64,000 nucleotides of DNA from an uncultured Gemmatimonadales bacterium (GTDB taxonomy: Bacteria > Gemmatimonadota > Gemmatimonadetes > Gemmatimonadales > JACORV01): assembly GCA_963806755.1 (NCBI GenBank), contig CAWDZR010000031.1, forward strand, positions 1,385 to 65,384, given 5' to 3'. A program made the translations under genes and the position numbers. Below the pieces are notes generated by a model. It did not search any database, was not told the DNA's origin, and saw only the letters and a program-made list of their open reading frames with translations. Positions within the stretch are counted from its first letter, which is position 1. The number at the start of each line of letters is the position of its first letter. Of the stretch, positions 10,154 through 53,116 are shown one piece after another.

Positions 10154-10161
10154 CCGTGGAT

Positions 10162-10320
10162 GCGTGAGGAGTGAGACGTGAGAGGTGAGAAGGGTAAGTG
10201 AGAGGTGAGAGGTGGAAAGGCGTGAGAGGGTGGCACCCACCTCTCACGCCTTTCGACGTCTCACGTCTCACCCGTCCTTCTCACCTCTCACACCTCACCT
10301 GTCGTTCCCACCCCTCACGC
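10162..10320. repeat. Long inverted repeat built of GTGAG(A/G)N heptamer-like units (left arm) and CTCAC units (right arm); probable bidirectional terminator structure
   Basis: Fills the gap between the convergent stops at 10153 (+) and 10335 (-). A perfect 14-bp central stem pairs GAAAGGCGTGAGAG (10215-10228) with CTCTCACGCCTTTC (10241-10254). The outermost GCGTGAGG (10162-10169) is complementary to CCTCACGC (10313-10320). Confidence 0.85.
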
Positions 10321-10334
10321 CGGGCCCCGTGCAT

Positions 10335-23169: not shown

Positions 23170-25872
23170 GTGCGCTCAGGCGTCCTGATCGGGGCCATCG
23201 GCCTCGCCCTCGGCACCTTCGCCGCGGCGCGCCCGGCGGCCGCGCAGGTCCACCCGACGCCCCCGCCCCGCGCGGAGGCCGCCCGCGCGACCGGCCACAT
23301 CACGATCGACGGGAAGCTCGACGAGCCGGACTGGCAGGCGGCGGTGCCCGCCACCGACTTCCGCCAGTCCCAGCCCAACGAGGGCCAGCCCGCGACCCAG
23401 CGCACCGAGGTGCGCTTTCTCTACGACGACGACGCGCTCTACATCGGCGCGCGGATGTACGACACCGAAGGCGCCAGGGGCATCCGCACGCGGCTGGCGC
23501 GGCGCGACAACATGCCCGCGGCGGACTACATCGAGATCATCTTCGACACCTTCCACGACCACCTCGGTCGCGTGGACTTCCAGGTCAACCCGTCGGGCGT
23601 GAAGGCCGACTCCTACGGCCCCAACGGCTCCAACCTCGACCTGTCGTGGGATGCGGTGTGGGACGTCGCCACGACCGTGGACTCGCTGGGCTGGACGGCC
23701 GAGTTCCGGATCCCGCTCGGCCAGCTGCGCTACCCGCGAGACTCCGTGCAGACGTGGGGCCTCCAGGTGTGGCGGATGGAGGCGCGGCTCAACGAGCTGT
23801 CGCAGTGGGCGTTCTGGCACCTGAACGAGACGGGCGGCCCGGCGCGGTTCGGGCACCTCGAGGGCCTGCACATCACCCGCGGGCCCGACCGCGGCGAGGT
23901 GCTCCCCTACGTGGTGGGCCGCACGACGATGGACCCGACCGTCTCGCCGGCCAATCCGTTCACCGAGCCGCACGCGTGGGACGAGCGCGTCGGCGGCGAT
24001 TTCAAGTACCTGGTGAATTCCTCGCTGACCCTGTCGGGCACGATCAATCCCGACTTCGGGCAGGTCGAGGTGGACCCGGCGGTCGTCAACCTCAGCGCCT
24101 TCGAGACCTACTTCCAGGAGAAGCGGCCGTTCTTCGTCGAGGGCAACGGCCTGTTCGACTTCGGGAGCTTCAGCTGCTTCAGCTGCAGCAACGTCAATGC
24201 GCCGGGCCTGTTCTACTCGCGCCGCATCGGCCGTTCGCCGCAGGGCGCCGGCAACGCGTTGACCGCGGCGGGCGACAGCGGCTTCGCCCAGGTGCCGGAC
24301 AACACCGCGATCCTCGGCGCCGCGAAGCTCACGGGCAGCGTGGCGAAGGGCTGGACGCTCGCGGCGCTCGACGCCACGACGGCGCGCGAGATGGCCCAGA
24401 TCCAGGACTCGACGGGCCGCCGGTACCAGATGGAGGTCGAGCCGTTCACCAACTACTTCGTCGCGCGCATGTCGCACGACCTGCCGGGCGGCAGCTACGT
24501 GCGCGGCATGGTCACCTCGGTCGTGCGGGACATTCGCGACTCGACGCTCGCCACGCAGCTCAACACGCACTCCGAGGCGGCGGGGCTCGAGACCGACCTG
24601 TGGTGGGGGAAGCGCACCTATCAGCTGATGGCCAACGCGATGATGACCCAGGCGGTGGGCAGCCCGGCCGACATCCTCGGGCTCGAGCAGTCGAGCGCGC
24701 GCTACTTCCAGCGGCCCGACCGGCGCAACGGCTCGGACGGCCTGTTCAGCAACCGCTACGACGACTCGCTCACGGCACTACGCGGCTACTCGTTCTACAC
24801 GCGGCTGGCCAAGGACGCCGGCGACTGGAACTGGGAGATGCAGACGAACGTCCTGAGCCCCGGCTTCGAGGCGAATGACGTCGCCTTCAACACCCAGTCC
24901 GACCGCATCTTCATGGGCGGGAACCTGATGCGGCAGTTCACCAAGCCCAACCGGTTCGCGCGCTTCATGATGTTCATGCTGGGCGCCCAGCAGATCTACA
25001 ACTTCAGCCACGAGCTCCAGAACCGGCAGGTCCAGGGGTACACCCAGTTCACGTTCCACAACTACTGGAACCTGGCCTTCTACGGGCAGGTCCGCGCGCA
25101 GACGCTGAACGACAACCTGGCGCGCGGCGGTCCCGCCCTGGGCCAGGCGCCGTCGTGGTACTCCTTCGTCCAGCTGACCACCGACTCGCGCAAGGCGCTG
25201 GTCATCTCGAGCACTCCGGACCTCGGCTGCTCCCAGGGCCACTGCTCGTGGGACCTGAGCGTGGACGCGGTCGTTCACGCGGCGCCGAACGTCTCGGTGG
25301 AGCTGATCCCGGCGTTCAGCTACGGCACGACCAACCACCAGTACGTCACCACCGTGGCGGATTCGACGGCGACCGCGTTCTACGGGCAGCGGTACGTGTT
25401 CGCCAACCTGCTCGAGAAGACCCTCTCGATGGTGACGCGGCTGGACTGGACCTACACGCCGAACCTGACGCTGCAGCTGTACGTGCAGCCGCTGATCGTG
25501 AGCGGGCGGTACGGCGCCTTCCACGAGTTCGCCGCGCCGCGCAGCCTGGCCACCACCGTGTACGGCGCGAACGCCGGCACGATCGGCTACGCGAACGGCA
25601 CGTACACCGTGGACCCCGACGGCGCCGGGCCCGCGGCGCCGTTCACGTTCTCCGACCCCAACTTCAACTTCCGCTCGCTCCGGGGCAGCGCGGTGCTGCG
25701 CTGGGAGTATCACCCCGGCTCCACCGTCTATTTCGTCTGGACGCAGGAGCGGAGCGGGACCGGCGCCACCGGCATCGGCGACCTCGCGCTCGGAAGCGAC
25801 CTGCGCGGGCTGGCGGACCTGCAGCCGACCAACGTCTTTCTGGTCAAGTTCAGCTACTGGGTGGGGCTCTGA
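23170..25872 (+). CDS. CBM9-like + DUF5916 outer-membrane beta-barrel-type protein (paralog 1 of 3)
   Basis: 900 aa with a signal peptide. ITIDGKLDEPDWQAAVPATDFRQSQPNEG...VRFLYDDDALYIGARMYD...WDAVWDVATTVDSLGWTAEFRIPL is the CBM9-like head. The C-terminus ends ...FLVKFSYWVGL, which is OMP-like. Confidence 0.75.
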   Translation: MRSGVLIGAIGLALGTFAAARPAAAQVHPTPPPRAEAARATGHITIDGKLDEPDWQAAVPATDFRQSQPNEGQPATQRTEVRFLYDDDALYIGARMYDTEGARGIRTRLARRDNMPAADYIEIIFDTFHDHLGRVDFQVNPSGVKADSYGPNGSNLDLSWDAVWDVATTVDSLGWTAEFRIPLGQLRYPRDSVQTWGLQVWRMEARLNELSQWAFWHLNETGGPARFGHLEGLHITRGPDRGEVLPYVVGRTTMDPTVSPANPFTEPHAWDERVGGDFKYLVNSSLTLSGTINPDFGQVEVDPAVVNLSAFETYFQEKRPFFVEGNGLFDFGSFSCFSCSNVNAPGLFYSRRIGRSPQGAGNALTAAGDSGFAQVPDNTAILGAAKLTGSVAKGWTLAALDATTAREMAQIQDSTGRRYQMEVEPFTNYFVARMSHDLPGGSYVRGMVTSVVRDIRDSTLATQLNTHSEAAGLETDLWWGKRTYQLMANAMMTQAVGSPADILGLEQSSARYFQRPDRRNGSDGLFSNRYDDSLTALRGYSFYTRLAKDAGDWNWEMQTNVLSPGFEANDVAFNTQSDRIFMGGNLMRQFTKPNRFARFMMFMLGAQQIYNFSHELQNRQVQGYTQFTFHNYWNLAFYGQVRAQTLNDNLARGGPALGQAPSWYSFVQLTTDSRKALVISSTPDLGCSQGHCSWDLSVDAVVHAAPNVSVELIPAFSYGTTNHQYVTTVADSTATAFYGQRYVFANLLEKTLSMVTRLDWTYTPNLTLQLYVQPLIVSGRYGAFHEFAAPRSLATTVYGANAGTIGYANGTYTVDPDGAGPAAPFTFSDPNFNFRSLRGSAVLRWEYHPGSTVYFVWTQERSGTGATGIGDLALGSDLRGLADLQPTNVFLVKFSYWVGL

Positions 25873-25904
25873 CGGCGTCGAGTGCCGAGAGTTCAGGGTT
25901 GCAG

Positions 25905-26062
25905 GCTAGTAGCGAGACGGCGAGTTGCGAGCGGTTGGCAGATATCGTTAGCCGGAGCGAGAAAGGCCGCGGCCGGCTCGTGGGAGCCTGAGGGCCCGTT
26001 CCGCTTCTGCCGTCTCACATCTCGCTACCGCTCGCCACTCGGCGTCTCGCAACTCTACTGGC
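25905..26062. repeat. Long imperfect inverted repeat with GCGAG-type short repeat units
   Basis: Left arm tagtagcgagacggcgagttgcgagcgg (25907-25933). Right arm taccgctcgccactcggcgtctcgcaactctact (about 26027-26059). The arms are largely reverse complements. The inner part contains a further GCCGG...CCGGC pairing. Confidence 0.6.
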
Positions 26063-26095
26063 GACCGCCTGCTCCGGCCTGTTAGTTACTCCCCC

Positions 26096-26500: not shown

Positions 26501-28029
26501 GGGAGCGCGCATACGACGTCGTCATCGTCGGCTCCGGCGCCGGCGGCGGCACCGTGGCGCAGGAGCTGGCGCCGCTGGTCGCGCAGGGCGTGCGGGTGCT
26601 GGTGCTCGAGCAGGGCCCGCGCCTCGACGACGGCGAGTTCACCGGCCGCGAAGTCGAGATGGCCGACGCCCTCTACGAGGACGGCGGCGGCTTCCTCACC
26701 GCCGATGGGACGATGACCCTCGCCTTCGGCCGCGCGCTCGGCGGCTCGACCGTGGTGTACACGGGCACGTCGCTCGTCGTGCCGCCGCGCGTGATCGCCG
26801 GGTGGCGGGTGCCCGGCCTCGAGCACGGCGATCTCGCGCGCCGCTCCGCCAGGTACGCGGAGCAGAACGACGTCCACCTGCTCGAGCCCGAGCTGATCAA
26901 CGACAACAACCGCCTGTTCGTGGAGGGCTGCCGCCGGGCGGGGTTCCGCGCGGAGCAGTTCCCGCTCAACGTGCGCGGCTGCCGCGGCTCGAGCCTGTGC
27001 AACCTCGGCTGCCCCAACGCGGCCAAGATGGGCACCGCGCGGGTCCAGCTGCCGGCGGCCGAGCGCGCCGGCGTGCAGGTCGTGACGCGGGCGGAGGTTC
27101 GGCGCATCGGGGACCGCTCGCTGACCGTCGTGGTGCGGGACCGGAAGGCGGGCGAGAAGGGGCGAGTATCGGAGTGGGAACCCGGCGAGTACCTGGTGCG
27201 CGCGGGAGTGGTCGTCGTCGCCGGCGGATCGGTGGGCTCCTCCGCCCTGCTGCTGCGCTCCGGCTTCGGCCTGCGCCTGCCGGCGCTCGGCGCGGGATTC
27301 ACCTGCCATCCGGCGCACATCCTGGTGGCGGAGCACGAGCGCCCCATCACCAACGACGTGGGCCACCCCAAGAGCTACTACGTGGACCGCGCGGCCGAGG
27401 AGGAGTACGTGCTCGAGACGTGCATGTACTTCCCCTTCACCACCGCGAAGAACCTCACCGGCTTCGGCGCGTCGCACAGCGCGATGATGCGCGCCTTCCC
27501 GCGGCTCCAGATGATCCTGGTGCTCGCGTGCGACAAGGCGGCGAAGGACAACCGCGTCACGGTGGACCGCGACGGGAAGGCGGTGGTGCGCTACCGCTTC
27601 ACCCCGCGCACGATCGAGGCGATGGTGCGCGCCACCCGGGCGTCGGCGAAGATCTTCTTCGGCGCCGGCGCGCTGCGCGTGCACGCCCCATCGGCGGATC
27701 CGCCGCTGATCGAGCGTCGCGACGCGGCGCGCGTGGACGAGCTGATCGCGGCGCGCCACTTCCTCCCCGGCAAGGTGTCGGTCTCGGCGGCGCACCTGAT
27801 GGGCGGCTGCGCGATGGGCGCCGCCGGCGACCGCGCGGCCTCCGTGACCGACGCCTGGGGCCGGGTACACGGCGTGCCGTGGCTCCGCGTGGCCGACTCG
27901 AGCCTGTTCCCCGACTCGCTCGAGATCAACCCGTACCTCACCATCATGGCGCTGGCCGACCGCGTGGCGGAGGGCATCCGCACCGAGGCGCGCGACCTGC
28001 TCGGCGCCGCGGCACCCGAGGGAACGTGA
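26497..28029 (+). CDS. GMC-family FAD-dependent oxidoreductase
   Basis: 510 aa. YDVVIVGSGAGGGTVAQELA is the FAD-binding GxGxxG motif. The C-terminal ...HLMGGCAMG...VADSSLFP is typical of GMC enzymes. Confidence 0.85.
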   Translation: MRERAYDVVIVGSGAGGGTVAQELAPLVAQGVRVLVLEQGPRLDDGEFTGREVEMADALYEDGGGFLTADGTMTLAFGRALGGSTVVYTGTSLVVPPRVIAGWRVPGLEHGDLARRSARYAEQNDVHLLEPELINDNNRLFVEGCRRAGFRAEQFPLNVRGCRGSSLCNLGCPNAAKMGTARVQLPAAERAGVQVVTRAEVRRIGDRSLTVVVRDRKAGEKGRVSEWEPGEYLVRAGVVVVAGGSVGSSALLLRSGFGLRLPALGAGFTCHPAHILVAEHERPITNDVGHPKSYYVDRAAEEEYVLETCMYFPFTTAKNLTGFGASHSAMMRAFPRLQMILVLACDKAAKDNRVTVDRDGKAVVRYRFTPRTIEAMVRATRASAKIFFGAGALRVHAPSADPPLIERRDAARVDELIAARHFLPGKVSVSAAHLMGGCAMGAAGDRAASVTDAWGRVHGVPWLRVADSSLFPDSLEINPYLTIMALADRVAEGIRTEARDLLGAAAPEGT

Positions 28030-29768
28030 AGCTCACCGGCGGCCAGATCGTCGTTCGCGCGCTCGAGGACGAGGGCATCCCCTTCGCCTTCGGCATCCCG
28101 GGCACGCACAACATCGAGCTGTACGACGCGCTCGCGGCCTCCACGAAGGTCCGGCCGGTGCTCGTGACCGACGAGCAGAGCGCGAGCTTCATGGCCGACG
28201 CGGTGTGGCGGTCGTCGGGCCGGCTCGCGTGCGCCAACGTGGTGCCGGGCGCGGGGCTCACGCACGCCATGAGCGGCATCGCGGAGGCGTACCTCGACAC
28301 CGTGGCGCTGCTGGTGCTGGGATGCGGCATCCGTCGCGACACCGGCAAGGCCTACCAGCTGCACGACGTGGACCAGATCGCGATGGTCAGGCCCGTCACC
28401 AAGGCGCAGTTCCGGCCGCAGGCCGGGGAGGAGCTGTACGCCACCATCCGGGAGGCGTGCCGACTCGCGCGCGAGGCGCCGGCGGGCCCGGTGTTCGTGG
28501 AGGTACCCGCGAACCTGTACCTGTTCACCCACGACGCGAACGTGGATGCGGCGGCACACCCTACACCCCACACCCTACACCCAGCACAACAGCAAGCAGA
28601 GCTGCAGAGAGCGCAGGTGTTGCACGCCGCCGAGTTGCTGAACGCCGTCCCACACCCCCTGCTTTACCTCGGCCTCGGCGCCGCCCCCGCCCTGCCGCAT
28701 CTCGTGGAGCTCGCCGAGCGCCTCGAGGCGCCGGTGGCCACGACGTTCCAGGGCAAGGGCGTCTTCCCCGAGTCCCACCCGCTCGCGCTGTGGCCCGGCT
28801 TCGGCGCCGCGGCGCCGCCGTTCGCACGGGCGGTCGCCGACGGCTGCGACGCCACGCTGGCCATCGGCTGCCGCTTCGGCGAGGTGGCCACGGGGAGCTA
28901 CGGTCTCGCCGTACCCCGGCCGCTCATTCACGTGGACGTGGATGCGTCCGTTCCCGGGCGCAACTACCCCACGGACGTCGCGATCGCCGGCGACTCGGCG
29001 GCCGTCGTGCCGGCGCTGCTGGCGGCGCTGGCGCCGCATCCGCGCGACCCCGCACTCCGCGCGCGCATCGCGGAGGGGCACGCCGCCCTGGCGCGCGAGC
29101 GGGCGGCCGCACCGGACACCGGGCGCGTCTCGCCCGTCCGCCTTCTCGCCGCGCTCCAGGCAAGGCTCGGACCGCAGGCGATCTTCACCGCCGACAGCGG
29201 CAACGGGACGTTCCTCGCCGTCGAGCTGCTGCGGCTCGAGGCGCCGGGCAGGCTGCTCGCCCCGGTGGACTACTCGTGCATGGGCTACGCCGTGCCGGCG
29301 GCCGTCGGCGCGAAGCTGGCGCGGCCGGATTGCCCCGTCGTCGCGCTCGCCGGAGACGGCGCCTTCCTCATGACGGGGCTCGAGCTGCTGACGGCCGCGC
29401 AGCTCGGACTCGCCGTCGCGGTGTTCGTGCTGCGGGACGGCGAGCTGGCGCAGATCGCCCAGTTCCAGGAGACCGCCTTGGGCCGCAAGACGGCGAGCGA
29501 GGTCGCGGACTACGACCTCGGGGAAATCGGTCGGGCGTTGAGAGTCGAGAGTCTAGAGCTCAAGCGGGACGCCGACATCGGCCCCGTCCTGGAGCGCGTC
29601 GCCGCGGCCACCGCCGCCGGCCGGCCGGTGCTGGTGGACACGGCGATCGACTACTCGGAGAAGACGTTCTTCACGAGGGGGGTGGTGAAGACGACCTTCC
29701 TCCGCCTTCCCTGGCGCGACCGGCTGAGGTATGTGGGGAGGGCGTTGCTGAGACGCGTGATGCCTTAG
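28026..29768 (+). CDS. thiamine-diphosphate-dependent enzyme (acetolactate synthase-like family)
   Basis: GTG 28026 overlaps the GMC stop. VKLTGGQIVVRALEDEGIPFAFGIPGTHNIELYDAL...DEQSASFMADA fits the Pyr domain. ...LAGDGAFLMTGLELLTA carries the GDG ThDP-binding motif. The first 408 codons of ORF 26802..29768 are out-of-frame overlap with the GMC gene. Confidence 0.8.
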   Translation: MKLTGGQIVVRALEDEGIPFAFGIPGTHNIELYDALAASTKVRPVLVTDEQSASFMADAVWRSSGRLACANVVPGAGLTHAMSGIAEAYLDTVALLVLGCGIRRDTGKAYQLHDVDQIAMVRPVTKAQFRPQAGEELYATIREACRLAREAPAGPVFVEVPANLYLFTHDANVDAAAHPTPHTLHPAQQQAELQRAQVLHAAELLNAVPHPLLYLGLGAAPALPHLVELAERLEAPVATTFQGKGVFPESHPLALWPGFGAAAPPFARAVADGCDATLAIGCRFGEVATGSYGLAVPRPLIHVDVDASVPGRNYPTDVAIAGDSAAVVPALLAALAPHPRDPALRARIAEGHAALARERAAAPDTGRVSPVRLLAALQARLGPQAIFTADSGNGTFLAVELLRLEAPGRLLAPVDYSCMGYAVPAAVGAKLARPDCPVVALAGDGAFLMTGLELLTAAQLGLAVAVFVLRDGELAQIAQFQETALGRKTASEVADYDLGEIGRALRVESLELKRDADIGPVLERVAAATAAGRPVLVDTAIDYSEKTFFTRGVVKTTFLRLPWRDRLRYVGRALLRRVMP

Positions 29769-30604: not shown

Positions 30605-30782
30605 GCTGCCAGGAAGGGGCATCACGCGTGCCAGCGCAGCAAGCGCGTGGTCTCGATGATCTTGACGACGGCTTGACGGCTCGCCGTCGGGACGCGCTGT
30701 CCAGTCCTGATGACGGCGCGCGCGTCGTCTTGACACCTCCCGCGGCGCGACCCAACGTTGGCGCCCCGGACCGGAGGCCCAC

Positions 30783-31295
30783 GTGGCGACGAAACAACCG
30801 ACCGCACCGCCCGACGCCGGCGAGGCGCTGCTCTCCGCCCTCGCCACCAGCGAGCGCATCACCCAGTTCCTGCTCGAGCGCCTGCCCGCGGCCGCGTGGC
30901 GGGCCGAGCCGCCGGGCGGCGAAGGCCGCACCATCGCCGCCATCGTGGCCCACGTGCACAACGTCCGGCTGATGTGGCTGAAAGCGGCCGGCACGGGAGG
31001 CAAGCTGCCCCCGCAGCTCGACAAGATGAAAGTCACCGTGACCCAGGCCCGGAAGGCGCTCGGGGCCAGCCACGAGGCCGTGGACGCGCTGGTGACCGAC
31101 GCCCTCGCCGGGAGCGGACGCGTGAAGAACTTCCCGCCCGACGTCACGGCCTTCGTGGCTTACCTGATCGCGCACGACGCCCACCATCGCGGCCAGATCT
31201 GCATGCTGAGCCGCCAGGCGGGTCACCGCCTGCCGAACGAGGTCACCTTCGGGATGTGGGAGTGGAACAAGCGGAGGCAGGAGGCCTCTACTTGA
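30783..31295 (+). CDS. DinB-family protein
   Basis: 170 aa. ...IAAIVAHVHNVRLMWL...FVAYLIAHDAHHRGQICML shows the His-triad pattern of the DinB/DinB_2 four-helix bundle. Confidence 0.75.
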   Translation: MATKQPTAPPDAGEALLSALATSERITQFLLERLPAAAWRAEPPGGEGRTIAAIVAHVHNVRLMWLKAAGTGGKLPPQLDKMKVTVTQARKALGASHEAVDALVTDALAGSGRVKNFPPDVTAFVAYLIAHDAHHRGQICMLSRQAGHRLPNEVTFGMWEWNKRRQEAST

Positions 31296-32121: not shown

Positions 32122-32251
32122 GACCGGCTGGCCTGGGATGGAAAAGGGAATACATGATGATGGATTGGAGACTGTGCCGCAACTGGGCCGCCAATCGCGG
32201 CCCGCCGGCCGCGCGCTTGACACCCTGCACCACGAGTGGCGAAGCTTGCTC

Positions 32252-32437
32252 ATGGCAATGAACGCCGAGTGGCACCAAGCCCATCCCGAGCCGCGTAAAG
32301 CCACCCTCGCCCAGCGCGTGTCGTGGCACCGGCTGCACGCCGAGAACTGCAACTGCCGCCCCATCCCGCCGGACATCATGATCGAGATCGACCGGCTGGA
32401 GCGTTCGAAGAACAAGAAGACGTACCGACCCAGGTAG
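32252..32437 (+). CDS. small conserved-looking His/Cys protein (hypothetical, possible metal-binding)
   Basis: 61 aa: MAMNAEWHQAHPEPRKATLAQRVSWHRLHAENCNCRPIPPDIMIEIDRLERSKNKKTYRPR. The pattern WH..H...(17)...WH..H...C.CRPIP recalls small proteins I have seen in many bacterial genomes. Confidence 0.45.
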   Translation: MAMNAEWHQAHPEPRKATLAQRVSWHRLHAENCNCRPIPPDIMIEIDRLERSKNKKTYRPR

Positions 32438-32442
32438 AAGCC

Positions 32443-34006
32443 GTGAGTCCCGGCGAGGCCGCCCCGCCGCCCCCCGGGCGCCCCGCTTTCACCGGCCGGC
32501 TGGTGTGGTCCCTGGCGGCCGCGCTGCTCGCGCTCCACGTCGTCACCAATCTCGTCACGCCCTACGGCATCCAGCGGGACGAGTTCCTGTACTTCGCCAT
32601 GGGCGACCACCTGCGCCTGTGGCACATGGACTTCCCGCCGCTCATCGCCGTCCTGTCGTGGGTTTCGCGGTTCCTGCTCGGCGATTCGCTGGTGGCGCTG
32701 CGCGCCGTTCCGAACCTGGCCGCGAGCGCCATCGTCGTGCTCGCCGCGCTGCTGGCGCGCGAGCTGGGCGGCGGGCGGTTCGCGCAGGCGTTCGCGGCGC
32801 TGGCCGTCGTCGGCAGCGTCTTCTTCCAGCGCGCCGGCGCCCTGTACCAGCCCGTCATTCTCGACGCCCTGTGGTGGACCGTGGGGTTCTACGTGCTGGC
32901 GCGGCTCGTGCGCGGGGACGCGCCCGAGCGGCATTGGTGGCTGCTGCTGGGCCTCGCGGGCGGGATCGGGCTCCTGACCAAGTTCAGCATCCTGTTCTTC
33001 GGCTTCGGCGTGCTGATCGCGCTCCTCGCGACGCCCTGGCGCCGCGCGCTGCTCCAGCGAGGTCCGTGGGTCGCCCTGCTCGTGGCGCTGGTCGTGGGCA
33101 GCCCGACGCTCGTCGGGCAGGTCACGCTCGGCTGGCCGCTCGTCGGCCAGATGCAGGACCTGCGGCAGAGCCAGCTCGGCCACGTCTCCGTCGCCGGCTT
33201 CTTCCTCACCCAGCTCATGTTCGGACCGGCGATGCTGGCCGGCGCGTGGGGCGCGGGCGCGCTCCTGTTCTCGCCGACGGCTGCGGCCGTTCCGGGCGAT
33301 CGGCTGGACCGTGCTGGTCGTGTGGATCACGCTGGTGGTCCTGCACGGGAAGGCGTACTACGTCGGGGCGACATATCCCGTGCTGTTCGCGGCCGGCGCC
33401 GTCACGCTCGAAGCCGTGCGGCGACCGGCGCTCGGCGTCGGGCTGCGGCAGACCGCGGCGTGGGCCACGGCGGCGTACGGCGCGTTGGTCCTGCCGCTCG
33501 GCGTGCCGATCCTGGGGCCGGCCCCGCTCGAGCGCTACGTCCACGCCATCGGCGCCGTGGAGGCGCTGCGCGACAACCAGGGCCAGCTGGGGCGCCTGCC
33601 GCAGGACTACGCCGACATGCTCGGCTGGAAGGAGCGGACGGCGGCGGTCGCGGAGGCCTACCACGCGCTCCCGCCCCTCGAGCGGGCGGAGGCGGTGATC
33701 ATCGCCAACAACTGGGGCGAGGCGGGCGCGCTGGAGTTCTACGGGCCGCGCTACGGCCTGCCGCAGGTCGTGTGCGCGGCGGGCTCGTTCTACTACTGGG
33801 GGCCCGGCGAGAAGGCGGGGGCCGTGGCCGTCACGATCGGCGAGGGCCGCGAGGGCCTGCGGCGCTTCTACGATTCGGTCGAGGCGGGACCGCACCTCGT
33901 CAATCCGCTGACCGTCCGCGAGGAGCGCGATCTCACCGTGTACATCTGCCGCCGGCCCAGGACGACGCTGCAGGCGATATGGCCGGGAGAAGCGGGAAGG
34001 CACTGA
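32443..34006 (+). pseudogene. glycosyltransferase family 39 (ArnT/PMT-like) gene interrupted by a +1 frameshift near 33277
   Basis: Frame 1 from GTG 32443 (..LVWSLAAALLALHVVTNLVTPYGIQRDEFLYFAMGDHL..., many TM helices) is sensible up to ..GALLFSP. Frame 2 then continues RLRPFRAIGWTVLVVWITLVVLHGKAYYVGATYPVLF... to the stop at 34006. Omitting one base around 33277 joins the two. Confidence 0.7.
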
Positions 34007-34019
34007 CGACTGGAGGAGC

Positions 34020-34189
34020 GTGAGAGGTGACAGGTGAAGGTGAGAGGTGAGAGGTGAGAGGTGAGAGGTGAGACGTTCAAGTGAGAGGTGAGAGGCGAAA
34101 GGCGTGAGAAAGTGCGGGATGCCCTCTCACGCATTTCCACCTCTCACATCTCACTCAACCGTCTCACCTCTCACCTCTCACCTCTCACC
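34020..34189. repeat. Long hairpin of tandem heptamers (GTGAGAG)n / (CTCTCAC)n between convergent genes
   Basis: Five GTGAGAG/GTGAGAC units lie at 34040-34074 and four G/CTCTCAC units at 34161-34188. 34047-34074 is the exact reverse complement of 34161-34188 (28 bp). The interior arms (34081-34109 and 34125-34154) pair again with a few mismatches. Confidence 0.9.
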
Positions 34190-34192
34190 ATT

Positions 34193-35749
34193 TCATCGCA
34201 AATCCACCGCCTGCCTCACCACCACCGCCCAATGCCCTCCCGTGAAGCCGGCGCCGAAGCGGTTGGCCAGTGCGATCTCCGTCACCTCGCCTCTCGTCGA
34301 ACGCGTGGCGCCGAGCCGGAGCGCGAGGCCGACGTCGCCGCCCGCGCGCGGGCGCTCGCCCGCGAACCACGCCCCTCCCCACTCGGCGAACGGCGCGAGG
34401 CCCACCCCCACCAGGCCCAGCGCGTCGTTGGCCACCAGGAAGCGGTCCTCTCCCACCACCCAGTAGCGGCGGGTGCCGGTGAAGGCGTGGGCGCCGAAGG
34501 CCCGCGGCCCATTCTGGTACAGCCACAGGTCGAACTCCGTCCCCGGTGCCACGTCCCGCGCCGCGCCCCCCTCCGCGTGCAGCATCAGCGTCTGGCGGGG
34601 CAGCCGCTGGCTCGCGACGGTCATCGCCGCCTCGACCCGGCCGGAGTCGAGGCCCGCCCCGCTCACCACGCCGTCCGCGTTCATGCGCAGCCACATGAAC
34701 CCGTCCCGCCATCCCGTGCCCCACTGCGCCTGTACCTCGGGGCCCACGCCGCCGCGGCCGGCGCCGTAGCCGAACGCCCGCGGCGCGACCCACGCGCCCA
34801 GCCACAGGCGGCTCGAGATGTCCACGTCCTCGGGGCGGTCGTACTGGTCGAGGCTGCGCGCGACCCGGAACCGCGACCGCCCCAGCTCGATCCCCATCCC
34901 CCCGGTGAAACTCGTCGAGTCGGGCGCGGCCGCCGCGCCGTAGCGCCCGAACTCCTCCTGCCGCAGCTGACCGAAGAACTGCAGCCGCGTGTACGCCTCG
35001 GCGGTCGCGCGCAGCGCCACGCCCCCGTCCAGCCGGAACCGCAGCGCCCGGCGCTCGGCGGAGTCGGCGAGCGCGCCGTCCACGAAGGTCAGCACCCGCG
35101 TCGTGCCGGCCTCGCCGCTGGTGACGAGCGCGGCGGGCGCCGACGTCTCGTAGAACGGCACCCCGTACGACCACACCGCGGCCCGGCCGTCGGAGAGGTC
35201 GAGCAGCCAGAGGTCGAGGTTCGCCCGCCGCAGCACCAGGCCGGGGGAGTGCAGCAGCAGCGCCCACTCGCTGCGATCCGGGTCCTTCTGGTACAGCGCC
35301 TGCACCGAGTTGGCGGTGCCGACCAGGTTCTTCTCCACCAGCGCCAGGTTCCAGGTGATGGACCCGGCCGACGACGAGAACGAGCCCTGCGGCCGCGTGC
35401 TCCAGCCGTCGGCCGTGGTGACCCGGACGCCGAAGCGCCCGTCCACCCGGACGGTGTCCAGCTCGACGTCGCGGAAGACGCCCAGGCCGCGCAGGGCCCG
35501 GGCGCTCTCGACCACGCGCGCGGAGTCGTACGGGTCGCCCTGGTCGAAGAGCAGCGTGCGGCGGATGACCCAGGGGCGCGTGCGGACGTGCAGCGCGTCG
35601 GCCAGCCGCGCCAGGAAGCCGGGCGCGTCGCCGAGGGGCTCGAAGATGTTGTGATTGACGACGACGATCGTGTCGATCGTCTGAGCCGAGGCCGGCGTCG
35701 CGCGGATGGCCGCCGCGAGCGCGGCGGCGCAGACGAGCCGGCGGATCAA
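34193..35749 (-). CDS. Omp85-family (BamA/TamA-like) outer-membrane protein with POTRA-like N-domain
   Basis: 518 aa (TTG start) with signal ..AIRATPASAQ. The POTRA-like segment is IDTIVVVNHNIF...VIRRTLLFDQGDPYDSARVVESARALRGLGVFRDVELDTVRVDGRFGVRVTTAD. A long beta-barrel-like C-terminal part follows. Confidence 0.65.
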   Translation of the reverse strand: MIRRLVCAAALAAAIRATPASAQTIDTIVVVNHNIFEPLGDAPGFLARLADALHVRTRPWVIRRTLLFDQGDPYDSARVVESARALRGLGVFRDVELDTVRVDGRFGVRVTTADGWSTRPQGSFSSSAGSITWNLALVEKNLVGTANSVQALYQKDPDRSEWALLLHSPGLVLRRANLDLWLLDLSDGRAAVWSYGVPFYETSAPAALVTSGEAGTTRVLTFVDGALADSAERRALRFRLDGGVALRATAEAYTRLQFFGQLRQEEFGRYGAAAAPDSTSFTGGMGIELGRSRFRVARSLDQYDRPEDVDISSRLWLGAWVAPRAFGYGAGRGGVGPEVQAQWGTGWRDGFMWLRMNADGVVSGAGLDSGRVEAAMTVASQRLPRQTLMLHAEGGAARDVAPGTEFDLWLYQNGPRAFGAHAFTGTRRYWVVGEDRFLVANDALGLVGVGLAPFAEWGGAWFAGERPRAGGDVGLALRLGATRSTRGEVTEIALANRFGAGFTGGHWAVVVRQAVDLR

Positions 35750-35792
35750 CGCCCGGGGCCGGGGGTCGGCCCGGGGCCGACGGTCGGCCCGG

Positions 35793-36230
35793 CTACTGCC
35801 GGGCCCAGGAGCTGACGATCACGTGCAGCGAATCGTTCCCGTCCATCCTGAGGATCGTGTCGCTCGGCGACTCCGTCAGCCGGAACGTGCCGCTGAAGTT
35901 GCGCTTGCCCGCCGCCGACATCAGCAGGATGCACTCCGAGCCGACCAGCTGGTACGACCCGCTGTCGGCGGTCAGCGTGTCGCCCACGCTGGCGGGGATG
36001 TACAGCGAATCCGCGTACTTCCCCGTCGTGAAGTACAGCACGCCGCTGGCCGGCGGCACCGTGTAGGTCCTGGTCCCGAACTGGTAGCTCGACAGCGTAT
36101 ACGAACCCACCAGGACCGGCGCCACACCGCTGCCGCAGTTGTTGCCGTTCGTCGGGGTGCTGTTGCACGACGCCGAGCCCAGGCCCGCTACCGCGAGCGC
36201 CATCAGGGCCAACGACCGTGTCGGAACCAT
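35793..36230 (-). CDS. small lipoprotein (paralog of 38545..38967)
   Basis: ATG 36230 is preceded by GAGGAGG. MVPTRSLALMALAVAGLGSASC carries a lipobox. It shares NxCGSG..P.LVG(S/T)Y(T/S)L.SY, DSG(S/T)Y...GS.CI and F.GTF.L blocks with the other copy. Confidence 0.6.
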   Translation of the reverse strand: MVPTRSLALMALAVAGLGSASCNSTPTNGNNCGSGVAPVLVGSYTLSSYQFGTRTYTVPPASGVLYFTTGKYADSLYIPASVGDTLTADSGSYQLVGSECILLMSAAGKRNFSGTFRLTESPSDTILRMDGNDSLHVIVSSWARQ

Positions 36231-36374
36231 CGAGCCTCCTCGGGCGAGCCGGCCGTGCCGAACCGACGGCCTCGGCTCCAACGATACGCGTTCCGGCGCC
36301 GCCTTGCCATCCCGCGCGCCGGAATCCGGGTGCATCGCCTGGCGCCGCAGCGTCCGTCGCGGGCGCCGGCGTCC

Positions 36375-40631: not shown

Positions 40632-40637
40632 ACGACA

Positions 40638-40723
40638 GGTTGTAGGTAATGGGTGGTAGGTGGTAGGTGGTAGGTGGTGGGTGGTGGGGCGCCCCTACGA
40701 CCCACAACCCATCACCCACCACC
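40638..40723. repeat. Hairpin of (GGTGGTA)n heptamers with complementary C-rich arm, between convergent genes
   Basis: The left arm is ggttgta ggtaatg ggtggta ggtggta ggtggta ggtggtg ggtggtg, mostly in period 7. The central perfect palindrome is GGGGCGCCCC (40686-40695). The right arm is cctacga cccacaa cccatca cccacca cc. Confidence 0.85.
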
Positions 40724-40732
40724 TTCTTTCGT

Positions 40733-42596: not shown

Positions 42597-44515
42597 CTAC
42601 GGCAACACCGGCAGCACCAGGTGCGACGGGTGCGCCGCCGAGCGGTATATCCGCTGCGTCGTCTTCCGGAAGTCCCCGTCCTTCGCCGTGTAGATGTCCT
42701 CGAACCGCCCCGGGTTCCGGTCCACCATCGGGAACCAGGTGCTCTGCACCTGCACCATCACCCGGTGGCCCGGCAGGAACGTGTGGTACACGTCGTTCAT
42801 GACGAAGTGGACCCGGGTCACCACGCCGGGGCGGAACGGCACCGGGTGCGCCGTGCCGTTCCGGAACTTGCCTCGCATCACGTCGCCGCGGAGCAGCATC
42901 TCGTAGCCGCCCATCCGCGCGGCGCGCGCCGGCCGCCCGTAGGAAAACTCCTGGTCGCGCCCGTAGTCGTCGGGGAAGACGTCGATCACCTTGACGATAT
43001 AGTCCTGGTCCGTGCCCGTGGTCGAGACGTCGAAGTCCACCGTGATGGGCCCGGCGACGGTGAGCGCGGAGTCGAGCGCCGGCGTCTGGTACACCAGGAC
43101 GTCGGGGCGGCGCGCCGCGAAGCGCTGGTCCCCCACCATGAACGCCGGATCGTACCACTGCGTGATCTCGTCCGTGTAGGGCACCGGCTTCATCGGGTCG
43201 CTCACGTACTCGTCGAACGCCGTCGCCCCGCGGGCCCCGCCGGCCCCGCGCTCTTGCGGCGCGCCGAAGGCCAGGGCGCCGCCGGCGCGCAGGTACAGGT
43301 CGCGCGGCTTCGCCTCCGGCGGGGGCCACGCGCCCACGAAGTGCCACCGGTCGCGCCCCGTCTCGAACACCGCGGCCGCGAACGGGCGCGGCGTGGGCTG
43401 CGAGTCGAGCAGGTAGTAGTTGAAGAACGGGATCTCGATGCTGTCGGCGTAGAACTCGGTCGTCGGCGAGCCCCACGCGATCATCCCCAGCGAGTCGCCG
43501 GGCAGGCCGTTCCACTGCCCGTGATGCCAGGGGCCCATCACCAGGCGCATCTCGCCGCCCGGGCTGTGCGCTCCGGGCGGCGGCCTAGCCGTGCAGCGCG
43601 CCCCACAGGTTCTCGGTGTCGAACCAGCCGCCCACGTACAGCATCGCGGGCTTGAGGTCCTTGAGGTGCGGGATCGCGCTGCGGGCCGCCCAGAACGCGT
43701 CCCACTGCGGGTGCGCGACGATCGAGTCCCAGAAGGCCACGCTGTCGTGATAGACGCGCGCGTTCAGGTTCGAGAGCGCCCCGAGCCGCATCGCGTACGC
43801 GTACCCGTCCGGCGTGCCGAAGTCGGGGAACGGCGGCATCACGCTCGTCGGCTGCGGGCGCGGCCGGCCGAAGAAGTTGAAGAAGAACGAGTGCGCCTCG
43901 AGCAGCGCGCCGTTGTGGAAGAAGTCGTCGCCGCCCATCCACTCGGTCACCGGCGCCTGCGGCGAGACGACCTTCACCGCCGGGTGCGCGTCGATGGCGC
44001 CGCCATCTCGGCGTAGAAGCCCGGGTACGACGTGCCGCGCACGCCCACCCGCCCGTTGTTGAACGGGATGTTCTTGATCAGCCAGTCGATCGTGTCGTAG
44101 GTGTCGGTGGTCTCGTCCACGTCCTTGTTCGGTCCGGTGCGCCGACGACCGGCCGCACGTCCTCGAACTCGCCCTCGCTCATCCAGCGCCCGCGCACGTC
44201 CTCGCCGACGATGATGAAGTGCTCGCGGGCGTACGCCGCGGTGATGTGGTCGAGGCCGCGCGGAAACGCGTCCGGCCCGTACGGCAGGTTGCCGTACGGC
44301 GTGCGGATCATGACGATCGGGTGCCGCGCGGTCGTGTCCTTCGGCACGAAGACGCGGGCGTACAGGCGCACGCCGTCCCGCATCGGGATCATCACTTCGC
44401 GCTTCGTGTAGTTGGCGCGGAACCAGCCGGTGTCAGCCTGGGGCGACTGCGCGGTCACGGCCGCGGGCGCGAGGGCGAGGGCGAGCAGGGACAACAGGAC
44501 GGCGAGGCGACGCAT
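42597..44515 (-). pseudogene. CocE/NonD-family hydrolase (X-Pro dipeptidyl-peptidase S15-like) broken by at least three frame disruptions
   Basis: The pieces lie in different frames. The N-terminal piece is 44515..44078 (signal peptide, ...IVGEDVRGRWMSEGEFEDVRP). An unlisted frame reads TGPNKDVDETTDTYDTIDWLIKNIPFNNGRVGVRGTSYPGFYAEMAA. The middle piece is 43977..43585 (IDAHPAVKVVSPQAPVTEWMGGDDFFHNGA...GGWFDTENLWGALHG*). The C-terminal piece is 43550..42597 (RLVMGPWHHGQW...). The breaks are near 44135-44160, 43995-44000 and 43551-43587. Confidence 0.8.
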
Positions 44516-44537
44516 GGAGCCTCCGAAGGCGCGGTGA

Positions 44538-44609
44538 CCTACACCCTACACCCTACACCCTAAACCCGGGGGGGGAAGGGTGTGGGGTGTAGGGTGTGGG
44601 GTGTGGGGG
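44538..44609. repeat. Hairpin of (CCTACAC)n heptamers with complementary G-rich (GTGTRGG)n arm
   Basis: cctacac cctacac cctacac cctaaac cc gggggggg aa ggg tgt gggg tgta ggg tgt gggg tgt ggggg. It lies between the co-directional genes at 44617 (stop) and 44515 (start). Confidence 0.85.
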
Positions 44610-44616
44610 TCCCGCC

Positions 44617-47268: not shown

Positions 47269-49860
47269 TTACCAGTTCAACCAATACGACCACTTCACTA
47301 GGAAAGTGTTCGCCGGATGGAGGCGGAACAGGTCGCGGACGTCCGTCTGGTAGCTCCCGTCACCCGCGTAGTTCGCCGAGCCCTGCCGCCCCTCGTTCCA
47401 CACCACGAACAGCGTCGAGCCGGGCCGGTACTCCCAGCGCAGCACCACGTTCGACTGGAACGCCTTGTAGTCGAACCCGCCGGGGTTGTCGGTGACCGAC
47501 GTGTCGCCGTACGCGGCGAAGCGGTCGGCGTAGTTCGCCGCGCGCGGCGTGGCCGACAGCTGGCGGACGTTGGCGTACGTCCCCTTCGAGATGAACGGCT
47601 GCGCGTACACCTGCAGCGACACGTTGGGCGTGAAGGTGAAGTTGAGGCGCAGCGTCGCCGCCACCGTGGTCTGGTCGAGGTGCGCGAACGTGTAGTGCGT
47701 CGCGCCGACGGAATCGGTGTAATTGTCGTACCACTGGTTGTCGGAGATGTTGCGCGTCCAGTTCACGTTCAGCGACGAGCTGAAGCGGTGCGCGAGCTTG
47801 AGGTCGAGCTCGGGCTGGAGGCTCAGCATCGAGTTGTGGCCCGCGTCGCCGCGGAAGTAGTTGACCCAGAAGTACGGCACGAGCGCCTGGCGGTCGTCGC
47901 CGTTGAGCCCGGCCCACGGGGCGAAGTACGGGTCCTGGCGGATGGCCGGCCCGCCGCGCGCGCTGCGGTCGTCGTACGTGGTGCCCAGCTGCCCCCACGT
48001 CGCGCCCATGTTCCAGTTCATGTTGTTGTGGAACGTGATGTGGACGTTGCTGTTGACCGCGGCCTCCTGCGGCAGCCCCGCCGTGGTCCAGTACTGCCAC
48101 CAGTTGACGTTCCACTGCAGCCGGTTGTACCAGCTGCGCTGGTGGCGGTCGAAGAACCCGGCCCAGGTGGCCCAGCTCTGCTGGTCGGCCCGCTGCAGGT
48201 AGCCGAGGTCGTTGATCTCGAAGCCCGGCGAGCGGCGCATGTAGGCGGTCTCGAACAGGAGGTGCTGGCCGCCCACCTTGCTGACGTGCAGCTCCTCCGC
48301 GTCGCCCGACAGCGACGTGCGCGCCGAATCGAGCGGCAGGCCCGCGTCGGGCCGCTGGTAGAAGTGCACCGCGTCGGTCTGGAGCGCCGCGATGGCGGTG
48401 TCGCTGCCGGCCACGCGGCTCGAGGACAGCCCGCCCGACACCTCGTAGCTGTTGGCGAGGAAGCGGTGCCGGAAGTCCACGGCCCCGACGACGGCGTCGC
48501 GCGCCAGGTAGGGCGCCGTGAACGCGTCCATGCCGCGGTTGACGGCCGTGACCATCGCGCCGACGGTGCTCGCGCCCTGGCGCAGGTCCTGCGTCACCCG
48601 CACCACCGCGAAGTTGGTGGCCGGCTCCACGGTCTTGAGCGTGTCGCCGAACCGGGCCTGGTCGCGCTGCGTCACCGCGTCGAGCACGCCGAGGGTGAGC
48701 CCGCCCGGGAACCGCCCGATCAGCTTGGCCGCGCCGAGGATCGTCGTCGGCTGCGCCGACGTGGTGTCGCCGAACGTGCCCCACAGCTGCGGCGTGCGCC
48801 CGATGCGGCGGCTGTAGAACAGCCCCTCGTTGGAGCAGTTGACCGAGCTGCAGTTGACGTTGACCTGGAACAGGCCCCGCCCCGCCACGAAGAACGGGCG
48901 GCGCTCGTCGAAGAAGGTCTCGAACGCCGACAGGTTCAGGACCGAGGGATCCGACTCGACCTCGCCGAAGTCCGGGTTCACCGTCGCGTTGAGCGTCAGG
49001 TTCGACGCCACGCGGTACTTGAGGTCGCCGCCGACCGTCGCGTAGGAGGCGCGGCTGAAGGCGTCGTTCGCGATCGTGGACGCGTTCTTCGTCACCAGGT
49101 ACGGCGCCGCCTCGATCCGCTTCGGGGCGTCGAGCCCGTCGAGCCCGCTCAGCGTGCCGAACTGCGACGTCATGTCCGGCTTCGACTGGCTGAACACCGG
49201 CCAGCTGACCCGCTCGCTGTACCGGTACACGTCGCGGTCGATCGTGATCCCGAACGTGTGGTCGCGCGCCGTGGAATAGCGCAGCTGCGACATCGGGATC
49301 CGGAACTCCGCGGTCCAGCCCAGCGAGTCGATCCGCGTGGCCACGTCCCACACCGCGTCCCAGGCGTTGTCCTCGTTGTTCCCGTTGTAGATGGCCTGGT
49401 CGATCTTCACGCCCGCCGCGTTGACGCCGAACTCGTAGCCGGTGCGCCGGTCGTGGTAGGAGTCCACGAACACCCACACCATGTCCGAGGGCGTGAAGGT
49501 GTCGCGCCGCTCCAGGATGCGGATGATGCTGTCGGGGTGCGGATCGTAGCAGCGCACGAACACGTACAGGTTCGCCGCGTCGTAGGCGATCTTCGCCTCC
49601 GTCCGGAATCGCGGCGCCTTGCCCTCCGTGGGCTGCCACTCGAGGAACTGGGTGATCGGCGGCGCGGCCTGCCACACCGCGTCGTCGTCCCGGCCGTCGA
49701 TCACCGGCGCGCGCAGGGCGCGCACGGCCGTCGCCGCGCTCGCGGTGGGCAGCGCGACCCGCCGCGCGACGGCCGCCGGCGGCGGATCGTCCTGCGCCAC
49801 GGCCCTCTCGGGGCCCTGCAGGCTGGCCTGCACCATCAGGATCGCGACGAGCGGGAGCAT
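47269..49860 (-). CDS. CBM9-like + DUF5916 outer-membrane-type protein (paralog 3)
   Basis: ORF track 47269..49890. I prefer ATG 49860 (MLPLVAILMVQASLQGPERAVAQ signal) by analogy with the paralog N-terminus. 49890 would place the start inside the palindromic element. Confidence 0.75.
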   Translation of the reverse strand: MLPLVAILMVQASLQGPERAVAQDDPPPAAVARRVALPTASAATAVRALRAPVIDGRDDDAVWQAAPPITQFLEWQPTEGKAPRFRTEAKIAYDAANLYVFVRCYDPHPDSIIRILERRDTFTPSDMVWVFVDSYHDRRTGYEFGVNAAGVKIDQAIYNGNNEDNAWDAVWDVATRIDSLGWTAEFRIPMSQLRYSTARDHTFGITIDRDVYRYSERVSWPVFSQSKPDMTSQFGTLSGLDGLDAPKRIEAAPYLVTKNASTIANDAFSRASYATVGGDLKYRVASNLTLNATVNPDFGEVESDPSVLNLSAFETFFDERRPFFVAGRGLFQVNVNCSSVNCSNEGLFYSRRIGRTPQLWGTFGDTTSAQPTTILGAAKLIGRFPGGLTLGVLDAVTQRDQARFGDTLKTVEPATNFAVVRVTQDLRQGASTVGAMVTAVNRGMDAFTAPYLARDAVVGAVDFRHRFLANSYEVSGGLSSSRVAGSDTAIAALQTDAVHFYQRPDAGLPLDSARTSLSGDAEELHVSKVGGQHLLFETAYMRRSPGFEINDLGYLQRADQQSWATWAGFFDRHQRSWYNRLQWNVNWWQYWTTAGLPQEAAVNSNVHITFHNNMNWNMGATWGQLGTTYDDRSARGGPAIRQDPYFAPWAGLNGDDRQALVPYFWVNYFRGDAGHNSMLSLQPELDLKLAHRFSSSLNVNWTRNISDNQWYDNYTDSVGATHYTFAHLDQTTVAATLRLNFTFTPNVSLQVYAQPFISKGTYANVRQLSATPRAANYADRFAAYGDTSVTDNPGGFDYKAFQSNVVLRWEYRPGSTLFVVWNEGRQGSANYAGDGSYQTDVRDLFRLHPANTFLVKWSYWLNW

Positions 49861-49873
49861 GCGGTGTCCTGTC

Positions 49874-49908
49874 TGCTGAATTTTCAGCATAGTGCTGAAT
49901 CTTCAGCA
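49874..49908. promoter_or_regulatory. Two tandem 16-bp perfect palindromes TGCTGAA-NN-TTCAGCA (candidate operator pair)
   Basis: TGCTGAATTTTCAGCA (49874-49889) and TGCTGAATCTTCAGCA (49893-49908) have centres 19 bp apart. They sit in the only clearly AT-rich patch of this intergenic region, 14-48 nt upstream of ATG 49860. Confidence 0.5.
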
Positions 49909-52996: not shown

Positions 52997-53000
52997 AGAG

Positions 53001-53108
53001 AGGGGTTAGGGACTAGGGGTTAGGGACCAGGGGTGGAAACGAAGGGGCCCCGTCGCGACGCGCGGCGGGGCTCCAGTGCTTTTCCCTAGTCCCTAACCCC
53101 TAACCCCT
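53001..53108. repeat. Hairpin of 7/14-nt units GGGGTTA/GGGACTA (contains TTAGGG-like tracts) between convergent genes
   Basis: The left arm is a gggg tta ggg acta gggg tta ggg acca gggg. The right arm is ccc tagt ccc taa cccc taa cccc t. 53001-53011 is the exact reverse complement of 53098-53108. An inner GC hairpin lies around 53045-53072. Confidence 0.85.
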
Positions 53109-53116
53109 GCTTCTCG

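Follow-up and report, generated by a model that had tools for sequence, protein, structure and literature searches.

Heptamers were noted in 2007 (Mrazek et al.) as the commonest long simple repeat (as summarised in PMC4679880; also PMC4692102), and a polymerase footprint, cited in PMC4679880, is the sole proposal that we found for the 7-nt period. The short tandemly repeated repetitive (STRR) sequences of heterocystous cyanobacteria, through which tandem heptamers first became known in bacteria, form hairpins that have been proposed to act in transcript stability or termination (PMC2670836). The GGGAATC arrays of Xanthomonas and the GGGGAYT arrays of Nostoc (Rehm et al. 2015) are mostly intergenic and rare between divergent genes. 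Within 50 nt of a stop codon or overlapping it, their G-rich strand is the coding strand; 70–75 convergent (inverted) array pairs occur per genome, the repeat type is preserved between species with varying length, and a single dominant unit was interpreted via G-quadruplex formation (PMC4692102). TAACTGA direct repeats are known from Beggiatoaceae, cyanobacteria and some Bacteroidetes (PMC4679880). Repetitive extragenic palindromic (REP) sequences, in turn, lie 3' of genes, between unidirectional or convergent open reading frames (ORFs), often supply the stop codon, are targets of insertion sequences, are thought to evolve by gene conversion and have been proposed to stabilise mRNA or attenuate transcription (PMC3733652). 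Here we describe an element at positions 34020–34189 of a 64,000-nucleotide stretch of DNA (the window; G+C content 71.6%) from an uncultured Gemmatimonadales bacterium (contig CAWDZR010000031.1): a ~170-bp near-perfect palindrome with arms of tandem, in part degenerate, 7-nt units, filling the spacer between two convergent genes. New here is the copied palindrome with heptamer arms; heptamer arrays of the STRR and Xanthomonas kind were already known. Our literature search returned no description for Gemmatimonadota, nor of heptamer-armed palindromes in Bacteroidota.

The sequence, read over 33900–34320, consists of a (GTGAGAG)n arm opposite a (CTCTCAC)n arm, beginning 13 nt past the stop codon of a glycosyltransferase gene (PMT_2/GT39 by Pfam) and separated by 3 nt from the stop codon of the opposing gene. 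Tandem Repeats Finder (TRF) reports a GTGAGAG period-7 array at 34020–34095 (11.1 copies, score 103) and a complementary CACCTCT array at 34138–34189 (7.6 copies); an inverted-repeat search pairs 34046–34100 with 34135–34189 (55-nt arms, 89% complementary), and four units form an exact 28-bp perfect stem. The units are tandem head-to-tail copies, longer than chance, as in the heptanucleotide-repeat class. Their autocorrelation at period 7 is 0.75 and 0.63 in the two arms (other lags 0.21–0.53, with peaks at 5 and 9). The predicted RNA minimum free energy (MFE) is −120.1 kcal/mol on the + strand (z −12.0) and −121.5 kcal/mol on the − strand (z −13.9), with none of 200 dinucleotide shuffles folding as well; DNA parameters give about −68 kcal/mol on each strand. 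A first-pass annotation made from the letters alone had reported the hairpin, its perfect stem and a near-continuous duplex well beyond the length of an intrinsic terminator, all of which these searches bear out (the stem is ~70 bp). It had also placed the glycosyltransferase stop at 34006, which we accept because the tblastn alignments of two orthologues end at 34003, and had rightly held the repeat to be non-coding. A coding repeat was rejected for this element, as the spacer-crossing ORFs (e.g. 34088..35815) are unselected by a gene call based on third-position G+C (GC3) and both flanking genes finish at conserved C-termini. The label "Omp85" for the opposing 518-aa gene (34193..35749, − strand) survives only in part: a similarity to BamA is present, albeit weak (E 0.025), no Pfam family was found, and the named relatives of the product are hypothetical proteins of Gemmatimonadales.

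Rather than an isolated product of slippage, the element is one member of a dispersed family of palindromes. It shares with a second element of the window, at 10160–10325, the landmark GTGAGAC-GTTCAA/GGTTGA-GTGAGAG, which includes an irregular 6-nt unit, and a further landmark, GGAAAGGC-GTGAGAGGG-loop-CCTCTCAC-GCCTTTC. Among the loci fetched for comparison (designated by L numbers), GTGAGAC-GTTCAA-GTGAGAG is also found in L125, L126, L001, L266 and L267. The core GAAAGGCGTGAGAGGG (allowing up to 2 substitutions) occurs in both window elements, L001 and L126, with one extra match in L103 outside any element. A metagenome scan with a 26-nt core pattern returned four contigs: L268, orthologous to the 10160 locus (1.7 kb aligned at 88.7% identity), L266 and L269, which represent one further family locus in two samples, and L267, another one. 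Since these non-heptamer landmarks are shared at several loci, the copies belong to one dispersed family, contrary, for this element, to the initial view that the architecture does not derive from a single mobile sequence. All four distinct family loci lie between convergent genes (binomial p 0.002), and aligning seven members shows stems of conserved sequence and a loop that differs from copy to copy. The conservation of an imperfect extragenic palindrome at four loci and their orthologues is the pattern by which REP elements and REPINs (REP doublets forming hairpins) are recognised. Compared with the terminal repeats of miniature inverted-repeat transposable elements, the whole element is itself an inverted repeat. 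No target-site duplication is visible in its 13-nt and 3-nt flanks or relative to the empty sites L127 and L002, and its ends are degenerate heptamers with no terminal GTAG/CGTC tag.

Set beside the known systems, the element is like STRR sequences in its tandem 7-nt units, in the coexistence of several unit families per genome, in its intergenic position and in forming a hairpin (an STRR example lies between hupS and hupL; PMC2670836). It is unlike them in phylum, G+C content and unit sequences, and in that the entire element is one long palindrome with conserved irregular landmarks, present at several loci and tied to convergent junctions. None of the window units is known to be among STRR1–3 of heterocystous cyanobacteria. 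STRR sequences had been named as the only known analogue; they are a fair one, although the Xanthomonas arrays with their inverted pairs had already been described (PMC4692102). With the latter our arrays share the G-rich coding strand next to stop codons and the inverted pairs (see below), and differ by the coexistence of several unit families and by much longer stems. Quadruplexes call for at least four G-tracts of three or more G: TAGGGGT and GGGTGTG arrays would provide them, GTGAGAG has no G-tract, and quadruplex formation therefore cannot be the common principle. REP sequences, bacterial interspersed mosaic elements and REPINs of Enterobacteria and Pseudomonas are likewise dispersed extragenic palindromes at gene 3' ends whose inverted pairs fold into larger hairpins; unlike our element, REPs are 20–40 bp long, are not tandem heptamers, carry the GTAG/CGTC tag and are tied to REP-associated tyrosine transposases (RAYTs). 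The TAACTGA repeats are also intergenic heptamer arrays, patchy across phyla, but they consist of a single unit, lie mostly just upstream of start codons and are nearly never inverted (1 case).

The tie to convergent junctions extends beyond this family. Within the window we find about 11 heptamer arrays of at least four unit families (GTGAGAG, AGGTGGT, GGGTGTR and TAGGGGT), and among periods 4–12 strong 28-nt autocorrelation is seen at period 7 only. Five arrays or pairs form clear hairpins and a sixth a degenerate one (Table 1), which agrees with the six or more loci first counted, except that the units are not all different, as 10160–10325 is of the same family as 34020–34189. Four of the five clear hairpins fill convergent spacers, so that a hairpin is present in 4 of ~6 convergent junctions versus 1 of ~33 others (Fisher p 0.0009). 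Across phyla, 20 of the 34 hairpins with both neighbours called are at convergent junctions, versus 18% of junctions (p 1e-7), these counts being approximate because gene calls in the fetched loci are crude (GC3-based or longest ORF).

The arms follow an order. Read on either strand, 23 of 25 classifiable hairpins open with the G-rich arm and 2 with the C-rich arm, one of the latter being 44535–44610 of the window, with one further pair mixed (p 2e-5). In arrays touching a stop codon the G-rich strand is the sense strand in a ratio of 68:16, versus 16:22, or no strand bias, in start-proximal arrays, and the bias is restricted to arrays that overlap the stop or lie within ~15 nt of it. Units with a stop codon in some frame account for 66 of 79 sense-G arrays versus 6 of 31 sense-C arrays, and with the G-first order each of the two genes meets stop codons in all three frames; as a rule, the strand rich in stop codons faces the genes. 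The most economical interpretation is that next to a coding end an array is tolerated only in its stop-rich orientation. This may be incomplete, since the GGGAATC unit of Xanthomonas shows the same bias and contains no stop codon.

Orthologous junctions in relatives point to an inherited but slowly changing repeat. In L125, L126 and L001 (~80% protein identity) the same element lies 3' of the orthologous stop codon, with 3 to 5 units outside the GTTCAA landmark versus 4 and 8 in the window. Unit numbers thus differ among distant orthologues (3, 4, 5 vs 4, 8), and L268 has the same number as the 10160 copy. The L126 and L125 elements match the window element better on the opposite than on the same strand (138 v 103 and 78 v 62, respectively), so that the element has been flipped between its own arms; for L001 it is the same strand that gives the better match (173 v 134). 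At this junction L004 (68% identity) carries a small hairpin built from another unit, GTGATGA; heptamers are missing from L127 and L128, and L002 has a 4-nt overlap of the two genes and no hairpin. Overall, the genes in relatives without the element overlap or stand 28–178 nt apart. These comparisons show the element turned round in one piece in some relatives and missing from others. The L268 element is 91% identical to the 10160 copy, with 88.7% identity in the flanking coding DNA, and L266 and L269 are identical within the element over the stretch compared, their one difference being in the flank. A hypervariable contingency locus was rejected on these grounds, the unit number being unchanged between the window and L268 and L266 being equal to L269 within the element. 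The junction history shows a repeat that is inherited, dispensable and slow to change, and heptamer arrays can form the arms of a copied palindrome with conserved landmarks that is inherited, flipped and lost in the manner of a REPIN.

Two relatives have peculiarities of their own at this junction. In L001 a 384-aa gene with N-terminal helix-turn-helix (HTH), transposase-like domains (11690–13035) interrupts the orthologous hairpin in its outer C-rich arm, which recalls the use of REPs as insertion-sequence targets; it is flanked by several inverted copies of a ~20-nt motif, GTGACAGCACAAAGTAGTCA, and a CTCTCACCTCTCA remnant lies beyond it. In L128 the spacer (7347–7436), which has no heptamer hairpin, is filled by a called 29-aa ORF whose DNA, as read by eye, suggests a Lys/Arg-rich product.

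The phenomenon is not peculiar to Gemmatimonadota. Among the matches listed for (GTGAGAG)3 in a set of species-representative genomes there are at least 120 such stretches, from Bacteroidota, Gemmatimonadales, Verrucomicrobiota, Planctomycetota, Chloroflexota, Acidobacteriota, Armatimonadota, cyanobacteria and others, with single matches only, among those listed, from Streptomyces, Pseudomonas and Bacillota. In 839 kb of fetched loci, arrays unrelated to the query number 110 for period 7, 21 for period 8 and at most 13 for any other period, in support of a genome-wide process tied to period 7, and many of these arrays are inverted pairs with a unique palindromic interior. The same architecture is thus met at convergent junctions in many phyla, and one carrier is a cultured isolate. 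In Hymenobacter piscis NST-14 (L018, NZ_JAHHZN010000012.1) a 270-nt (GTGAGAG/GTGAGAA)n hairpin whose interior is a unique palindrome (5920–6191) lies directly 3' of a stop codon between convergent genes and folds at −203 kcal/mol over 5890–6215; it is a possible experimental model.

GTGAGAG itself was rejected as a special unit, viral contigs giving 12 matches for it versus 8 and 9 for two permuted units. Scans of the same contigs for other unit lengths gave 2 (octamer), 13 (pentamer) and 93 (hexamer) matches; this collection is a poor test of period specificity because hexamers expand and contract with no frame shift. The tetramer GTGA is found in 24 of 112 non-query units versus ~8 by a rough composition estimate (about three-fold), an enrichment that is hard to read because degenerate relatives of the query confound the count. 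A heptamer array reaches the edge of the fetched DNA in L012, L013, L014, L063, L106, L107, L110, L113, L120, L122, L125 and L126, and in L013, L063, L106, L107, L110, L125 and L126 this edge coincides with the end of the contig. Short-read assemblies probably break at the arrays, whose abundance is therefore likely to be underestimated.

We consider the element to be a heptamer-armed dispersed palindromic repeat, analogous to STRR hairpins and to REP/REPIN elements, whose RNA hairpin would protect or insulate 3' ends, and we assign to this reading a probability of about 0.55. The arrays would lengthen and shorten in 7-nt steps through slipped-strand events; recombination or template switching between the arms would keep them alike and flip the element; and copies would persist where they are harmless, at gene 3' ends and above all at convergent junctions, oriented so that both genes meet stop codons in all three frames. 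Each convergent transcript entering the element would fold a ~70-bp hairpin right past its stop codon, and the hairpin would obstruct exonucleases acting from the 3' end and limit transcription running on into the opposing gene by a mechanism independent of a U-tract, an effect useful at best and not essential. From the position of the element, and by analogy with REP and STRR elements, we infer such a role in 3'-end protection and in limiting read-through to be helpful but dispensable. Should convergent transcripts indeed be ended or insulated by these hairpins without U-tracts, the hairpins would amount to a widespread, unrecognised class of signal for transcript ends in genomes poor in classical terminators.

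A number of observations weigh against this reading. Hairpins are present at same-direction junctions too, and at a few divergent ones. Orthologous junctions with no hairpin show that it is dispensable. None of 26 pairs in the seven family members has a compensatory double change, so that nothing but conserved sequence speaks for a maintained structure, and the L268 copy folds 22 kcal/mol worse because its substitutions are uncompensated. At same-direction junctions the sense strand is favoured over the antisense in stability and G-U pairs in 6 of 10 cases (p 0.75), and there is therefore no evidence for strand-specific selection at the RNA level. No U-tract is apparent at 58 stem ends of 29 hairpins (T 20% versus 15% background; 4 tails with at least 4 T in 10 nt), as the first-pass annotation had said of this one. 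In other high-GC bacteria, hairpins alone have been suggested to terminate poorly in vitro. No transposase, terminal repeat or target duplication was found that would explain the spread of copies: a Pfam scan of eleven window ORFs, a minority of the genes in this 64 kb of the genome, gave no transposase family and no RAYT. The role in RNA is, finally, one that we infer purely from position and analogy.

A real possibility, short of the probable, is that these are neutral or selfish repeats, generated by heptamer slippage and palindrome formation and persisting where they do least harm, in convergent spacers, gene 3' ends and domain linkers; as an account of the data it is nearly as good as the 3'-end hairpin role. 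The absence of the hairpin from some orthologous junctions, the lack of covariation and the uncompensated decay in L268 are all expected of such DNA, as are the degenerate old copy at 25875–26090, an array within a protein linker and the different unit families at the same junction in different genomes (see below), and stop-codon content alone accounts for the orientation rule. On the other hand, the stems are conserved in sequence across paralogues with freely varying loops, the divergence of the L268 element does not exceed that of the coding DNA beside it (91% v 88.7% identity), and enrichment at convergent junctions is strong across phyla, although tolerance could also give that pattern.

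A bolder and rather unlikely interpretation is that heptamer arrays and palindromes across phyla (Bacteroidota, Gemmatimonadota, Verrucomicrobiota, Planctomycetota, Chloroflexota, cyanobacteria and Xanthomonas, with many unit sequences) are the footprint of one conserved, length-specific machine, and that convergent-junction hairpins are its functional product and not a slippage by-product. The machine could be a protein reading single-stranded nucleic acid in 7-nt steps or an enzyme laying 7-nt units at gene ends, and the product could be, for example, a factor-assisted, two-way transcript end independent of a U-tract.

That the hairpin is a factor-independent, bidirectional intrinsic terminator, which releases RNA polymerase with the pyrimidine-rich 3' arm giving a weak RNA-DNA hybrid, seems unlikely. 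Like known bidirectional terminators it is a G+C-rich hairpin straight past two convergent stops, very stable on both strands, and the G-first order places the C/U-rich arm last on both transcripts; over 30000–48000, canonical hairpin-plus-T sites are no commoner than in shuffles (3 found versus 4.7 expected). Yet it has no U/A tracts, its ~70-bp stem compares with 5–15 bp, being 5–10 times longer than in known terminators, it is a member of a repeat family, and no hairpin is present where the orthologous genes overlap. Rfam gave no match at gathering score in the whole window, and a scan of 30000–48000 for consensus terminators and promoters gave no site at the element. At ~47205–47240 (−), 3' of the stop of gene 47269..49890, there is a short G+C-rich hairpin of the ordinary kind with UUUU behind it, so the organism also has classical-looking terminators. 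The elements are not classical terminators.

We regard as very unlikely a cause at the level of DNA, be it a cruciform or slipped structure, 7-nt-spaced protein sites (nucleoid, gyrase-like or single-strand binding) or an enzyme adding G-rich heptamers to 3' ends that are then joined head-to-head. Each DNA strand is predicted to fold well (see above), E. coli REPs bind gyrase (PMC3733652), a strict period of 7 with many unit sequences in many phyla wants a length-specific cause, viral contigs contain permuted units about as often as GTGAGAG, and head-to-head joining of 3'-added repeats would give the G-first order. Against this, we identified no gene for a candidate protein or enzyme, the G-first rule is already accounted for by stop-codon content, and the genes to either side are intact. 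The possibility that sequencing or assembly produced the element (as a chimeric fold-back or collapsed repeat) might draw on the apparent frame breaks in at least two window genes, with indel errors therefore possible, and on the contigs ending within such arrays. It is refuted for practical purposes: three independent assemblies of other samples (L001, L125, L126) have homologous elements with these landmarks at this junction, the 10160 copy recurs in L268, L266 and L269 agree through the element over the stretch compared, and a cultured isolate has the same architecture.

Table 1. Features of the element at 34020–34189 and other heptamer arrays in the window.
Feature	Position	Strand	Context or evidence
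Stop codon TGA of GT39/PMT_2 glycosyltransferase gene	34004..34006	+	tblastn of L001 and L002 orthologues; PMT_2 Pfam match
G-rich arm, ~12 units	34020..34108		GTGAGAG GTGACAG GTGAAG (GTGAGAG)x4 GTGAGAC GTTCAA GTGAGAG GTGAGAG GCGAAAG GCGTGAG; sequence, TRF, autocorrelation 0.75
28-nt perfect stem half	34047..34074		partner 34161–34188; exact reverse complement
Family landmark GTGAGAC-GTTCAA-GTGAGAG with irregular 6-nt unit	34068..34087		mirrored at 34148–34167; alignments
Left half of family core, GCGAAAGGCGTGAG	34095..34108		
Variable apex/loop, AAAGTGCGGGATGCC	34109..34123		differs between all copies; inverted in L126 relative to flanking genes
C-rich arm	34124..34189		CTCTCAC GCATTTC CAC CTCTCAC ATCTCAC TCAACC GTCTCAC (CTCTCAC)x3 C; sequence, TRF, inverted-repeat search
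Stop codon of 518-aa hypothetical gene (weakly BamA-like)	34193..34195	−	ORF 34193..35749, GC3 0.96; homologues
Paralogous family copy, clear hairpin	10160..10325		between tricorn-like protease gene (+) and S10-like peptidase gene (−)
Degenerate long hairpin	25875..26090		3' of the stop of gene 23170..25872; MFE −111 kcal/mol; period-7 autocorrelation 0.42, both arms
AGGTGGT / ACCCACC hairpin, clear	40637..40725		between aldo-keto reductase (+) and multicopper oxidase (−) genes
CCTACAC / GGGTGTG hairpin, clear, C-first	44535..44610		between two minus-strand genes: DUF5916 stop, peptidase S15 start
TAGGGGT / CCCTAAC hairpin, clear, with its own G+C-rich inner hairpin	53000..53112		between fucosidase (+) and PQQ/BamB-like (−) genes
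Single C-rich CTCAC-type array, no inverted partner	1200–1265		upstream of gene starting at 1274
Single (GTCGAGA)4 array, no inverted partner	4345–4373		near or within 5' end of ORF 3076..4470
Single (ACACCCT)4 array	28555–28582		within gene 28026..29768 (+) for a thiamine pyrophosphate-dependent enzyme
Single CCACCAC-type array, no inverted partner	57650–57683		

At two junctions of the window the unit family differs from that of the orthologous junction in L001, which has TAGGGGY in both: between DUF5916 and peptidase S15 (CACACCC at 44535–44610 vs L001 2325–2400) and at the 3' end of the aldo-keto reductase gene (AGGTGGT at 40637–40725 vs L001 5060–5131). This implies replacement or independent colonisation.

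In the glycosyltransferase gene upstream of the element, the alignment to orthologues passes from frame 1 (up to 33276) to frame 2 (from 33287), placing a frame change near 33273–33290 that is either a real frameshift (pseudogene) or an assembly indel error. Peptidase S15, one gene of 632–647 aa in L001, L002 and L004, appears split at 42597–44515 (−): 44078..44515 (−) covers only the N-terminal 71 positions of the profile, and ORFs 43585..43977 and 42597..43550 lie at the place expected for the remainder, so that it may be the second frame-broken gene of the window.

The (ACACCCT)4 array at 28555–28582 lies in a linker past the N-terminal domain of the thiamine pyrophosphate-dependent enzyme and encodes HPTPHTLHP. 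The L004 orthologue has the same array at 17818–17848, and the peptide is roughly conserved in five genomes.

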